DNA of 64,000 nucleotides from positions 64,001 through 128,000 of the IMG/VR virus record IMGVR_UViG_3300037755_000305; one strand, given 5' to 3'. Below are positions 10,462 to 53,019 of this stretch, piece by piece. Source of the DNA: a virus. The notes below the pieces were generated by a model. It did no database searches. It was not told where the DNA came from and saw only the letters and a list, made by a program, of their open reading frames with translations. Position 1 is the first letter of the stretch, and each line of letters starts with the position of its first letter. A program made the position numbers and the translations under genes.

Positions 10462-11607
10462 ATGACCAAGCTACTTCTGACGGTGTGCGCCTCTACTGAT
10501 GACATTGTACAGCTTGAGCCCACCATCGAGGCCCTGTACTACCAGTACGAAGATTGCCAAATTACCCTTCGCACTTTTAACGGATATCAGCCGTTTTTCG
10601 AACATCATCCGTATGTTTCTGAGATCATCGTCTTCGACGAAAACAATGAAGATATTGAGGGTTTCGATGTTTGTCTAGAAATTCCAGACATCAATAGCTG
10701 GTCCTTGGCCTTGCCAATCTCCACTGTAGAAAAGTTCGCTTGCGCCGCAGGGGTCCAGCTTCTACGCAAAACCCCCAAAATCTTCCTTGAGGAATATCCT
10801 GCCGACGAAAATTACATCCTTCTAGCGAAGGTAATCCATAGCGTACCAGAATGTCCCGTTTTTACCGAGAGTCTACACCACGCTTATGAAACGAAAGAAG
10901 TAGGTATTGCTACGGATTCTGACGATCTTCGGCGCATCTTGAAATTGATGGCAGCAGCAACCCTGGTAGTCGGTCCAGATAGTTGGGCCACACAGGCGGC
11001 TGCCGCCCTTGACGTTCGTGTCATCATGTCTATGGACGTTACTAACGAAGCACTGCGCGCTCCCTTTAATGTGGTAGTGGTGCCCGGAACCAAAGAGTCC
11101 ATTCTGCGAGCTGTCGAGGAAACCTTGTTCGAGAAGCGTTACCCGGATTACCTAAATTGCGGAAACGCTGCTGAGTTCATCAAGTGCCTCGCCAAAAAGT
11201 ACATGAAGGCACACTTCGTAGATATCGGCTGTAGCGCGTGGCCCATCCCGAACGGGATTCCGGTAGATAAAGACAACAGGAATGTCATTGAGGATGCCCC
11301 GGACGAATATTTCGCCGGTGTTTTTAGTTCCCACTGTCTTGAACACATTACAGAATGGGCTCAAGAACTTACCCTATGGCATCGTGTAATGAGGACTGGG
11401 GGCGCTATGGTTCTGTATCTTCCACACCCACGGGCCGAAGTATGGCACGCTCGCACAGGCTCCTGGGTAGGCAACGAGCACGTATGGAACCCGGAGCCAG
11501 TACAACTGGTACGATTCCTAAAGGAAGTCCTGGGAATGCACATTGTGGAGTACACGTCCAGGCGAGATCCCCTTTGGAGTTTTCACGTAGTTGCGAGGAA
11601 AATATGA
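10462..11607 (+). CDS. GT9-like glycosyltransferase fused to a class I SAM methyltransferase
   Basis: GT9-like LVVGPDSWATQAAAALDV; MTase-like VDIGCS, FSSHCLEH and W-x-RVMRTGG-x-MVLYLP. Confidence 0.75.
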   Translation: MTKLLLTVCASTDDIVQLEPTIEALYYQYEDCQITLRTFNGYQPFFEHHPYVSEIIVFDENNEDIEGFDVCLEIPDINSWSLALPISTVEKFACAAGVQLLRKTPKIFLEEYPADENYILLAKVIHSVPECPVFTESLHHAYETKEVGIATDSDDLRRILKLMAAATLVVGPDSWATQAAAALDVRVIMSMDVTNEALRAPFNVVVVPGTKESILRAVEETLFEKRYPDYLNCGNAAEFIKCLAKKYMKAHFVDIGCSAWPIPNGIPVDKDNRNVIEDAPDEYFAGVFSSHCLEHITEWAQELTLWHRVMRTGGAMVLYLPHPRAEVWHARTGSWVGNEHVWNPEPVQLVRFLKEVLGMHIVEYTSRRDPLWSFHVVARKI

Positions 11608-11623
11608 TGCCAAGTAAGGGAGT

Positions 11624-12022
11624 TTGAAGATGCCGACAGAAAACAATTATGGACTCTTGCCCGATACTGAGCCAGAAGAAGTAAAAGAAACCGAGGAACT
11701 CAATGAGTTCGACCAGCTCATTGCTTTGATGCTGGAGCTTGATCCGGCTAAGTACGCTTCGCACTGGGAGCCTGTAGAGCTTCGGAAGATGCGTGAGGTA
11801 TTGACTGCTGGTAACGGAAAATTCCCAAAGAAAGTGGTGCCCTATATTCACCTCATCCGAAAGTTCCTCTTCGCCAACGCCCAATTGATCGCCATGGCAG
11901 CACTGGCACACCAGACAGCTACCCAGAAGCGCGAAAAAGAAGAGTCTCTCATTAAGCCCGCCTCATTTGAGGAATTGGGCAAGATCGAATCTAGTCGAAT
12001 CCGAGGAGGTGGTGATGCGTAA
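11624..12022 (+). CDS. Hypothetical protein
   Basis: 132 aa ORF with SD (aagggag). Confidence 0.6.
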   Translation: MKMPTENNYGLLPDTEPEEVKETEELNEFDQLIALMLELDPAKYASHWEPVELRKMREVLTAGNGKFPKKVVPYIHLIRKFLFANAQLIAMAALAHQTATQKREKEESLIKPASFEELGKIESSRIRGGGDA

Positions 12023-12725
12023 AACATGGGACTCTAAAATTGTTGAGGAATTAAGGAATAAAGCTCTCTTACATAAAGAAGACATTGTACTAACGAAGGC
12101 AGAACATGATGACACTGTTTGCAAAATTAAGCACCATGTTTCACAGCTTGACAAGCAGGTGAATGGTAGCCAAGAGTTATATACAAAAAAACGGTCGGCT
12201 ACCAAGGCCAGTGATGACATATTATTAGGAAAATATGGGGAATACCTCGTGTCTCACTGGCTACACAACGGGAACGGAAAGTTACCTTTTCTAGAGCCTG
12301 ACATGAAGGTTTATGCGGCAAGTAAAAAAACTTGGGAGCCCGATTTACGTTTTTCTTCTATGGACAAAAGACTTCCTGATTTCGCAGTCAAAACATGTAG
12401 TCCCATTGCTGCAAAGCTAACTAGAAAGGAGAAAAATGACGACTACTCTTGGACTTTTCAGAATAGCAATAGTAATGGGAATGGTGGAACAGATAAGCTT
12501 GTGTGGGATAAAACTAACGAAGTCATTGTTGTTTTTGTATATGCGGATACCAAAAATAGAGGTGGCACGATTGTAGCCTCTTCTCCTTGGCGCAAGGTTA
12601 GCTGTCTTTTGGGTGAGCCTATTATAGAAAAGTATAAAGGCATAAAAAAATGTATATATTACAGTGACCTAGAAACAGTAGCGCGCGGCGAGCTACGGCG
12701 ATTGAAACAACAGAGGAAAGAATGA
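12015..12725 (+). CDS. AT-rich hypothetical protein, possible PD-(D/E)XK nuclease
   Basis: Start moved to ATG 12015 after SD gaggaggt. GKYGE...PD...DFAVKT resembles a PD-(D/E)XK core. Lys-rich and AT-richer than its neighbours. Confidence 0.4.
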   Translation: MRKTWDSKIVEELRNKALLHKEDIVLTKAEHDDTVCKIKHHVSQLDKQVNGSQELYTKKRSATKASDDILLGKYGEYLVSHWLHNGNGKLPFLEPDMKVYAASKKTWEPDLRFSSMDKRLPDFAVKTCSPIAAKLTRKEKNDDYSWTFQNSNSNGNGGTDKLVWDKTNEVIVVFVYADTKNRGGTIVASSPWRKVSCLLGEPIIEKYKGIKKCIYYSDLETVARGELRRLKQQRKE

Positions 12726-50330: not shown

Positions 50331-52054
50331 TAGTTGTCTCTCGTAGTTTTAACAGTGAATCCGAAATCTTCCCCGGCGGCTACTGCGTCGATTTCAATTT
50401 GGAATCGAGTGCCTGTGGCACCCGTGGTTCCTGTAAAGGAGTAAAAAGTGGCGCCAGCAGTGAAACTGACACCCGTTGGACCTTGCGCAGCCCCATCCTT
50501 CAAAATAGTAACGTTGACAGATCCGCTCTCCATTTGTCCGTGAATTTCGTTGATGGTTAATGGAAACTGAACGGCTTGCTCCAAGGTATATTTTTGTCCG
50601 AAAACTGGAGCCTCAATGAAACCTGACCACGTTTCTATCAGTTGAGATGTTCCACTCATACCTGTGGGTCCGGTCTCTCCAGGAATTCCTTGGGTACCTG
50701 TCAAACCGGTTTCGCCTGTAAGACCGGTGTTTCCAGTCATACCTGTGTTGCCAGTCATACCTGTGTTGCCAGTAGGTCCAGACGGCCCGGGCACACCCGT
50801 CATGCCGGTCTCACCCGTGGCTCCTGTTTCACCGACCGTTGCTCCGGTGGGACCAGCGGGACCAGCGGGCCCTGTTTCGCCAGGAGGACCCAAAGCTCCA
50901 CCAGCAGAACTCATTGTCAGCCAGGATTCTGAGCCCGCCTCGATAGACTGCCCAGATGCATCAGTTTCAACTGTTACCTGAACATTGTCTCCCGATGTAA
51001 GATCAATTTCTGTGGACAGGTTGATATCGGTTGTCTCGGGAAGTGGCATAGCCGTTTTCTTTTCCGAGGCAATTACAATACCGTTTACCTTAACCTCTAC
51101 CGTTAGAATGCCAGCAGCTACAGCCGTAAAACGAATCCCTGATGTTATTCGATATTTATCAGTCTTAATGGCATAAACAGAATCGGAATCGCCCACCGTC
51201 CAGAACTGCGCTGTACCCTCATCGTAGACTTCCGTATCCCAAGGAATATTGATTGGGGTGTTGGCAACGAGTGCAAGATTTGAGATAGCCCGCTCTACAC
51301 GAACACCCTCAAACTGGGCAACACCGGGGCCTGTTTCACCAATTGGACCTTCTGGACCAGTCTCTCCGGTCTGCCCCGTTGGGGCTCCAGCGGGTCCCGT
51401 GGGGCCCAGCTCTCCAGTAGGACCTGTGGCACCAGTAAAGCCTGTAGGACCGGCTCCAGTGGGGCCAGTCTCCCCGGTTTGACCAACAGGACCACCAGAG
51501 GGTCCAGTAGGGCCAACCTCACCAGTTTCGCCCGTGGCACCGGCTGGACCTACGTCTCCTTGGGGCCCTGTGGCTCCAGTTTCGCCCGTAACGCCCGTTG
51601 GAGCACCAGCCGGACCCGTGGCACCAGTAGAACCCGTTCCGCCCGTGTTGCCCGATCCTGTGGCTCCTGTGGCTCCGGTAGAGCCAGTGTTACCATTGGC
51701 TCCGGTGGGACCTAATTCTCCTGTCTCCCCTGTGGGGGCTCCAGCGGGCCCTGTGGGACCTAAATCACCTTGTGGACCTACGACTCCGGTAATCTGCCAA
51801 AATCCGCCCACAGCGGCAGGCACGTCTCCAGACGTGGCATTGCGATCGAACGCATAGATAGTTCGGTTGTCACGAACAGAAATGATCTGTCCATCGTATT
51901 GATCCTGCAAAAGCTGTAAGGCAAGAACGGTCTCAACAAACTCGTGAATTCTTTGACCTGTTGTGGTCTCAGAAGCTACTCCACTTGTGTTTATTTCTGC
52001 CGCTTCTCCTAAAGCTTCTATTTCGGTATCAAAAGATCCTGTGGATGGAGACAT
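50330..52054 (-). CDS. Collagen-like fibre protein with C1q-like domain
   Basis: Shared N-terminal module, Gly-X-Thr stalk, internal and terminal globular domains paralogous to those of 44256-50330. Confidence 0.85.
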
Positions 52055-52083
52055 TAGTTTTCGGCCCTCAAGTCTCTATTGTT

Positions 52084-53019
52084 TTAAGCTACTGGACCAG
52101 TCTCTCCACCTCTCACGGCTGCGGCTAGACGGTCAAGCGCCTCGGTAATTGTTGCAGGATCAGCTCCAAGCCAATCCGTAGTCTCACTAGGTGTATAAGC
52201 ATCCGGTCCTGTGGCACCCGTGCCTCCAGTGGCTCCGGTTTCACCTTGGATTCCATTGGGACCAGTGTTGCCACTTTGTCCAGTAGCACCCGTGCCTCCA
52301 GTTCCTCCGGTATTGCCAGTAAGTCCCTGGACGCCCTGGACACCTTGCTCACCAACATCTCCTTGTGGACCAGTCTCTCCGGTCTGTCCTTGTGGGCCCG
52401 TAGGTCCTGTAGGAGCGCCAGCGGGTCCAGTAGGTCCAGTTGCGCCAGAGGGTCCGGGAGGACCGCCCGGTGTACCGGGATATCCTGCTGGCCCTGTATT
52501 TCCTTTGGCACCTGTGGGACCCGCGCCAGTCGGGCCTGTGGCTCCAGTATTTCCAGCCCCCGTGGTTCCAGTGTTTCCCGTATTTCCCGCAAGACCTGTG
52601 GCACCAATGGAGCCAGTGGAGCCAGTGGTTCCGGTAGTACCTGAATTTCCTGTAGTTCCTTGGATACCTTGCGACCCGATAGGACCTGTTTCTCCGGTCT
52701 GTCCTTGAGGACCTGTGTCCCCTGTGGGAGCGCCAGCGGGTCCAGTCTCACCAGTGTTGCCCTGGAGTCCACCGAAGTTGATAAGTTTCCACACGCCCCC
52801 GTTAGGCGCAGCAATTTCATTGCTGCCAGCAACACTGGCTTGTTTATCCATACGATAAAGCAAGCCGTTTTCTTCTACTAGGACAATTTGCCTATCTACA
52901 GCCGTCTGAATAGTGGCCAGTCGAATGAGCGTATCAATACCTTGGAAGATACGTTCGTCCGGGGTCGAGCCCGGTCCAGAGCCATATGTTCCGCCTACGC
53001 TACCTGTCGGATCAGACAT
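52084..53019 (-). CDS. Short collagen-like fibre protein
   Basis: Shared N-terminal module, about 190 aa of Gly-X-Y, short helical C-terminus ([15 protein letters not shown]). Confidence 0.85.

Follow-up and report, generated by a model that had tools for sequence, protein, structure and literature searches.

The locus described here raises the question of why a virus should place a four-domain glycosyltransferase (GT) beside a cluster of collagen-like genes rich in threonine, and on what that enzyme acts. The window analysed is a 64,000 nt stretch comprising bases 64001–128000 of the 184,111-base IMG/VR virus record IMGVR_UViG_3300037755_000305 (CheckV completeness 69 %); coordinates below are window positions unless a record or locus is named. 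On its minus strand, five tandem collagen-like genes are separated by a single small gene from the gene for a 938 amino acid (aa) enzyme. Judging from its domains and its company, this enzyme is probably a dedicated cytoplasmic O-glycosyltransferase for the five collagen-like fibres.

Threonine-rich collagen-like genes and the adjoining glycosyltransferase gene

The five collagen-like genes occupy 39588–53019 and match Pfam Collagen with E-values of 6e-74 to 6e-20. Amongst their 549 Gly-X-Y triplets, Thr fills the Y position in 339 (62 %), whilst Pro is found at X in 119 (22 %) and at Y in 41. The reservation in the initial annotation that Pro sits mainly at X, lending little support to classic 4-hydroxyproline formation, is upheld. 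All on the minus strand, the genes are c5 (52084..53019; 311 aa; Collagen E 5.7e-20; Thr at Y in 30 of 59 triplets), c4 (50330..52054; 574 aa; E 5.6e-23; 44 of 77), the giant c3 (44256..50330; 2024 aa; E 6e-74; 189 of 272), the tail fibre gene c2 (41595..43889; 764 aa) and c1 (39588..41516; 642 aa from a TTG start; E 7e-24; 39 of 74). For c1 the true start is likely the ATG opening MADITG, about ten codons inside the TTG. The proteins of c2–c5 begin with a shared domain of some 90 residues, and c2 matches the Pfam families Collar (E 1.7e-19), Collagen (E 4e-18) and Gp10_C (E 2e-5); as the tail-collar and Gp10_C matches make up its C-terminus, tail-fibre domains are present on at least this one protein. 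Six collagen genes with Thr at Y had originally been counted, and the five tandem genes bear this out; the sixth (3..557, plus strand) is marginal, consisting of a single 13-triplet run at the end of a 1203 aa ORF (open reading frame) with Thr at 5 Y positions.

The 938 aa enzyme is encoded at 36190..39006 on the minus strand and matches Pfam Methyltransf_23, Glycos_transf_2, TPR and Glyco_transf_9. Between it and the collagens lies only a 179 aa gene (39032..39571, minus strand). The three GT genes reported previously, of which this is the largest and adjoins the collagen cluster, were confirmed by their Pfam domains. Along the minus strand the order is major head protein, five collagen-like genes, 179 aa gene, 938 aa glycosyltransferase, small genes and sheath-like protein, and the array from head to collagens to GT is tightly spaced and co-directional.

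Recurrent pairing of enzyme and collagen in viruses and bacteria

Co-occurrence of these GTs with Thr-rich collagens, which the initial annotation had raised, proved to be a strong and repeated association in both phages and bacteria. We retrieved 67 viral loci from IMG/VR by GT9-domain motifs alone and used as control 120 random viral loci picked by an arbitrary 14-mer, which replaced a PhoH control that had given just 15 related loci. A collagen-like ORF was defined by 12 or more triplets in runs no shorter than six, with a distance limit of 10 kb. By this rule, collagen-like ORFs were found at 34 of the 67 GT loci (59 ORFs in 1.2 Mb) versus three of the 120 random loci (1.1 Mb), giving an odds ratio of 40 and a raw Fisher p-value of 2e-15 that is too strong, as the loci share phylogeny. 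When the GT9 domains were clustered at 50 % identity, six to seven of the ten clusters were collagen-positive, and the position of the collagen relative to the enzyme varied across clusters, being upstream, downstream, convergent or flanking. Of nine long records, eight have a collagen gene no more than 10 kb from the enzyme; by our own arithmetic, the positions of the collagen genes alone would give 10–31 % per record, and a probability of about 6e-4 that five out of six lineages show such proximity. Every enzyme-bearing record that was at least 90 % complete contained collagen genes.

Sampling in the reverse direction, we collected 97 random viral collagen loci via a Gly-codon pattern. Thr made up 61 % of Y positions in the GT-associated collagens versus 31 % pooled (median 14 %) in this random set, and a match to the enzyme family was present at seven of the 97 collagen loci versus one of the 120 random loci (methyltransferase part only). 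A search of the collagen-negative GT loci for an alternative Ser/Thr-rich acceptor found none.

The same enzyme profile identified 24 loci in bacterial assemblies. Ten of them include a collagen gene at a distance of 10 kb or less, with Thr at 58 % of Y positions. In L328, L329, L337, L341 and L345 a Thr-rich collagen lies 1–5 kb upstream of the enzyme homologue, and the collagens of L337, L341 and L345 have signal-peptide-like N-termini. Both L328 (a 1.3 Mb contig) and L345 show ordinary chromosomal neighbours, including aquaporin, HAD hydrolase and SufS genes, and not a prophage context; pairing in such surroundings counts against the genes simply hitch-hiking within the fibre modules of phages. 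The pair also occurs in a methanotroph in culture, Methylocucumis oryzae Sn10-6 (L342, NZ_LAJX01000042.1), where a 916 aa homologue is encoded 650 nt upstream of a collagen with a signal peptide and with Thr filling 45 of its 56 Y positions; this strain is a possible bench model for the enzyme–collagen pair. The L345 collagen (2414–4624 of that locus) additionally carries a CBM96 domain at its N-terminus, and a small phage-tail-collar-domain protein (5065–5688) is encoded between it and the GT homologue.

No collagen gene lies within 10 kb of the enzyme in roughly half of the viral loci and in 14 of the 24 bacterial ones, which speaks against collagen as the acceptor. The viral figure would suit a different reading, namely that the acceptors are other virion proteins (capsid, sheath, a LamG lectin-like protein or a non-collagen fibre domain) and that the collagens are merely the nearest fibre genes. 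The GT gene is indeed located between those for the major head protein and the sheath, and mycobacteriophages glycosylate the C-termini of capsid and tail-tube proteins (Freeman 2023, as cited in PMC12619734). Nevertheless, we regard this reading as unlikely: it is specifically collagen-like ORFs, and Thr-rich ones, that are enriched around the enzyme, and in L328 and L345 the pair is found in an ordinary chromosomal setting where no virion genes were seen close by.

Domain architecture of the 938 aa enzyme

The enzyme begins with a zinc ribbon (aa 4–33; CxxC...CxxC, conserved among homologues), followed by an S-adenosylmethionine (SAM) methyltransferase (67–215), a GT2 domain (about 235–430), a TPR region (about 440–600) and a GT9 domain (about 620–860). 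When a profile of 15 homologues was searched against the PDB, the GT2 part matched GmaR (E 1.6e-33), SunS (2e-33) and ThuS (2e-22), with the next GT2 enzymes at about 1e-12. Its DxDD motif lies at 323–326, and D323, D325 and D326 are invariant among homologues. The Pfam matches to TPR that follow (440–513) are all under curated cut-offs, and positions 417–539 of the homologue profile match TPR proteins and the TPRs of OGT in the PDB profile search. GmaR, the Listeria flagellin O-GlcNAc transferase, glycosylates flagellin, whilst the glycocin enzymes SunS and ThuS glycosylate peptides. They share with the phage enzyme a GT-A domain with DxD followed by TPR-like repeats, as well as a protein or peptide acceptor type, but are stand-alone enzymes for flagellin or small peptides and lack a partner domain of GT9 or methyltransferase type. 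These comparisons at the sequence level support the view that the large GT beside the collagens is of a protein-glycosylating type.

The GT9 domain was modelled with a pLDDT of 91, and a fold search with this model returned 3tov (Z 24.3), WaaF (22.8), TibC (22.0, 276 residues aligned) and WaaC (21.5). Across 46 GT9-domain sequences the motifs R-x-G-A-x-G-D, G-W-S-x-x-K and G-x-D-S-x-x-x-H are invariant, and in the alignment they correspond to WaaC's GD, K and D motifs. Equally invariant is a Cys4 knuckle (C878, C881, C896 and C920; CxxC-x14-C-x23-C) that forms an insert before the last helix, ahead of which the WaaC match stops in the PDB profile alignment.

This knuckle has a possible counterpart in TibC, which heptosylates a repetitive adhesin in the cytoplasm and whose catalytic domain contains a Cys4 iron finger (C339, C342, C358 and C370) that aids substrate binding (PMC4358343). 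The resemblance to TibC/Aah (PDB 4rap, 4rb4) includes the GT9 fold, the use by TibC of ADP-heptose, which is the putative donor here, and perhaps the Cys4 group, which seems to be similarly placed and spaced, late in the C-lobe (CxxC-x15-C-x11-C in TibC). The two differ in that no match is found at the level of sequence, the last two Cys are 23 residues apart here versus 11, and the N-terminal β-barrel of TibC is absent (the alignment starts at TibC residue 85–92, and TPRs lie upstream in the phage enzyme). The acceptor would also differ, being Thr of a collagen repeat here versus Ser in a β-helix.

GT9-methyltransferase paralogues, sugar supply and the host envelope

The two smaller GT genes lie on the plus strand and encode paralogous proteins (E 9e-23) of 381 aa (10462..11607) and 375 aa (12722..13849). 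In distant phages one gene of about 400 aa takes their place, with GT9 and methyltransferase motifs both intact, and alignment with these single-gene homologues revealed reciprocal loss in the pair. The 375 aa protein (Pfam GT9 E 1e-5) has kept the GT9 motifs, and its model shows an intact GT9 fold over residues 1–258 (3tov Z 19.8, WaaC Z 17.6) followed by a truncated, half-size SAM-methyltransferase fold at 256–369 (Z about 11, 106–112 residues). The 381 aa protein, which has a weak Methyltransf_11 match, has kept the methyltransferase motifs and lost those of GT9. Both genes are thus present as first described, one as GT9 plus methyltransferase and the other as GT9 plus degenerate methyltransferase, but the loss of GT9 motifs in the 381 aa gene had been missed. 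On nine or more occasions, homologues of both paralogues matched contigs of equal size, a sign that the genes may be inherited as a pair; from the reciprocal motif loss and this co-inheritance comes the idea that their products could form a heterodimer. In six loci from distant lineages (L011, L017–L019, L026 and L028) a single-gene homologue stands 1.3 kb upstream of the big enzyme, and this ties the GT9-methyltransferase family to the same pathway.

The initial annotation had also called for a search for nucleoside diphosphate-sugar pathway genes elsewhere in the genome, and such genes were found. The record encodes an equivalog of the ADP-glyceromanno-heptose 6-epimerase HldD (313.7 bits vs an NCBIfam cut-off of 274.6) and an HldE-domain-II-like adenylyltransferase of 138 aa, nearest to heptose-1-phosphate adenylyltransferase, that scores 158.8 bits, under its cut-off of 181.5 (G000:C1:152520-152936, L349:1021-1437; minus strand). 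GmhA (SIS_2) was searched for in the record and not found, so that the first steps towards heptose are presumably left to the host. A glycan island at about 14–26.6 kb of the record contains methyltransferases, a PhyH-type dioxygenase, a sulfotransferase, a pyruvyl transferase, two GT1-like enzymes, a GT9 paralogue, a weak GT2 match and a LamG protein. In a crude hydropathy scan no transmembrane segments were seen in the 938 aa enzyme, the GT9-methyltransferase pair, the two heptose-pathway enzymes or the island enzymes, which is consistent with cytoplasmic modification. Two side observations concern these regions: the gene next to the HldE-like one has a weak likeness to the FGE/EgtB C-terminal fold, and the island includes an MgtC-family membrane protein followed by a circularly permuted YpsA (SLOG) protein (L001:9694-10179, L001:14227-14694).

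Directly upstream of the GT9-methyltransferase cassette, 8789–10377 encodes a Gly-rich protein and an OmpA-family protein with signal-peptide-like N-termini. These neighbours may point to an envelope-directed role of the cassette, and several features of the GT9 proteins pull away from the fibres in a similar manner. The pair lies 25 kb from the fibre genes, beside these OmpA-like and secreted proteins; the GT9 domain of the big enzyme is, by fold search, equally near the lipopolysaccharide (LPS) enzymes WaaC and WaaF and TibC; and it has no match to TibC chains (PDB profile, E up to 10) or to the BAHT model (NCBIfam, E up to 0.1). It could therefore be proposed that the GT9 enzymes, at least the 375/381 aa pair, target the host envelope by heptosylating or methylating the LPS core, with receptor change or exclusion of other phages as the outcome. 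The top NCBIfam matches are likewise LPS heptosyltransferases, and HldD and HldE belong to the LPS pathway. Set against this proposal, every NCBIfam heptosyltransferase score is far under its cut-off, no lipid-carrier, flippase or polymerase genes are found among the annotated island ORFs, the GT9-methyltransferase family adjoins the collagen-linked enzyme in the six distant loci, and the big enzyme bears protein-type GT2 and TPR domains. Taken with these points, an envelope target appears decidedly unlikely.

The 2OG oxygenase and the repeat element

Two further elements had been drawn into the proposed system. The first is a prolyl-hydroxylase-type 2-oxoglutarate (2OG)-Fe(II) oxygenase (14307–15032, plus strand; PF13661 E 3.6e-19, PF13640 E 2e-13), in which HxD...H...R is readable. 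Its presence and its motifs of prolyl 4-hydroxylase type stand; its membership in the system does not, Pro being rare at Y, its closest solved relatives being OGFOD1 and Tpa1 rather than collagen prolyl 4-hydroxylase, and a homologue being present in just one of 16 GT/collagen-bearing records. That homologue (G009:C1:116580-117227, the record of L005) has 70 % identity and an in-frame TGA, and the gene is absent from the closest relative. The oxygenase is probably outside the fibre system.

The second is a repeat of 28–31 nt that had been noticed, as a 31 nt element, upstream of both a GT gene (10462) and a collagen gene (39588–41516). Both placements are correct. Exactly five copies exist in the 184 kb record, all inside the window and preceded by TRATAA(T). 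Copy 1 (10421..10448, plus) lies 14 nt upstream of the 381 aa gene, copy 2 (13853..13880, plus) comes just after the 375 aa gene and upstream of a 92 aa membrane-like ORF, two copies are on the minus strand at 25493 and 32626, and copy 5 (41540..41567, minus) is upstream of c1. The five genes whose starts it marks are unrelated, and it is thus no evidence that GT and collagen genes are regulated together. We dropped it as a regulatory link because no copy was found in the three closest relatives, allowing up to three mismatches. Copies 1 and 2 are direct repeats (77 % over 60 nt) that bracket the 3.4 kb GT9-methyltransferase cassette, and the element looks like a strain-specific promoter-like or cassette-border sequence.

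Bracketing by a strain-specific repeat would fit an explanation without any functional link, in which the GT genes are accessory cargo lodged in variable fibre modules and have unrelated targets such as DNA or small molecules. Fibre modules commonly host accessory genes, a point that weighs on our reading of the pairing too; fibre regions are variable islands (PMC10202952), and DNA is often modified by phage GTs (PMC12619734). We consider this explanation highly improbable all the same, given that the association holds under the within-record positional control and that the pairing is kept among ordinary chromosomal genes on the large bacterial contigs L328 and L345. Furthermore, the TPR and Cys4 features indicate a protein substrate, and the phage encodes ThyX, with no hydroxymethylase among the annotated window genes.

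Genomic context

No close cultured relative was found in the phage collection, where the top match, Virus Rctr197k, had 31 % identity to part of the sheath-like protein. The major head protein is encoded at 54418–55575 (minus strand; PHROG 2522, E 1e-64) and the sheath-like protein at 27333–30428 (minus strand). A scan of 33600–53500 for sigma-70 promoters and terminators gave chance-level results, with no convincing internal terminators. Between c3 and c2, a 108 aa gene (43889..44215, minus strand) holds the same position in the relatives L004–L006 at 66–86 % identity and has no family match. These relatives also carry the 179 aa gene, at 38–76 % identity; its product has no family match, and an Atlas search returned nothing informative. 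Elsewhere in the window, the ThyX gene (6318–8117) is split by an intein with NUMOD4 and HNH homing-endonuclease motifs, and the family A DNA polymerase (2562–5609) has a uracil-DNA-glycosylase-superfamily domain at its N-terminus.

A proposed model for fibre glycosylation and its implications

The scheme that we infer for the acceptor, sugars, order of steps, benefit and role of the methyl groups builds on the domain identities, catalytic residues and gene associations observed above. The one co-directional, tightly spaced gene array would yield both the enzyme and the fibre proteins at a late stage of infection. The TPR domain would hold the Gly-X-Thr substrate whilst the GmaR/SunS-type GT2 domain attaches a first sugar to Thr, and the GT9 domain would then add heptose from ADP-heptose, either onto this first sugar or straight onto Thr, in the manner of TibC on Ser. 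The methyltransferase domain would methylate the glycan, and the 375 aa (active GT9) and 381 aa (active methyltransferase) paralogues, together with the soluble enzymes of the upstream island, could lengthen and decorate the chain. Donor would be topped up by the phage's heptose-1-phosphate adenylyltransferase-like enzyme and ADP-heptose 6-epimerase. Methylated sugars are known from the glycans of BclA. The methylated glycan coat first suggested for the fibres has gained partial support, of a comparative kind, from the protein-type GT2 domain, the collagen association and the heptose genes, although its links to the 2OG oxygenase and the repeat have been lost. The likely benefit would be that Pro-poor triple helices are stabilized and shielded, comparable to the galactosyl-Thr reported as a stabilizer of Riftia collagen (PMC10141479).

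Amongst known systems, a close parallel is found in Clostridioides difficile, where SgtA, whose gene adjoins bclA3, modifies Thr within GPT repeats with GlcNAc (PMC7157674). Here too a GT gene stands beside a Gly-X-Thr collagen gene, with one 179 aa gene between, and such pairs are met again in other viruses and in bacteria; in contrast to SgtA-BclA3, the carrier would be a phage fibre rather than a spore coat, and the four-domain fusion adds GT9 and methyltransferase domains. Virus-encoded GTs, accompanied in giant viruses by sugar pathways, also coat virion proteins in mycobacteriophages and Megavirinae (PMC12619734, PMC9614988). The enzyme families and acceptors of those viruses are different from the ones described here. 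To our knowledge, neither of these systems involves Gly-X-Thr collagen repeats or heptose. Our literature searches returned no relevant paper on phage collagen fibre glycosylation or on collagen-like proteins with heptosyltransferases, and in the literature found, phage virion glycosylation was demonstrated for mycobacteriophage capsids and tail tubes only.

Extending the argument beyond this phage, we tentatively suggest, as a possibility short of an even chance, that large phages and free-living bacteria have in common a two-gene module: a Thr-rich collagen and a dedicated multi-domain enzyme that would build a methylated, heptose-containing O-glycan on the Thr of Gly-X-Thr, with glycosyl-threonine replacing hydroxyproline as helix stabilizer. 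If this is true, heptosylated collagen would represent a new class of surface fibre, widespread among microbes and viruses. If many large phages do sugar-coat their collagen-like fibres with enzymes of their own, then the ability of the fibres to recognize hosts, remain stable and evade proteases or antibodies would hinge on a hidden coat of glycans; it would also offer a general explanation of how Thr-rich prokaryotic collagens fold without hydroxyproline, and the conserved enzyme–substrate pair would be a ready tool for glycosylated collagen materials.

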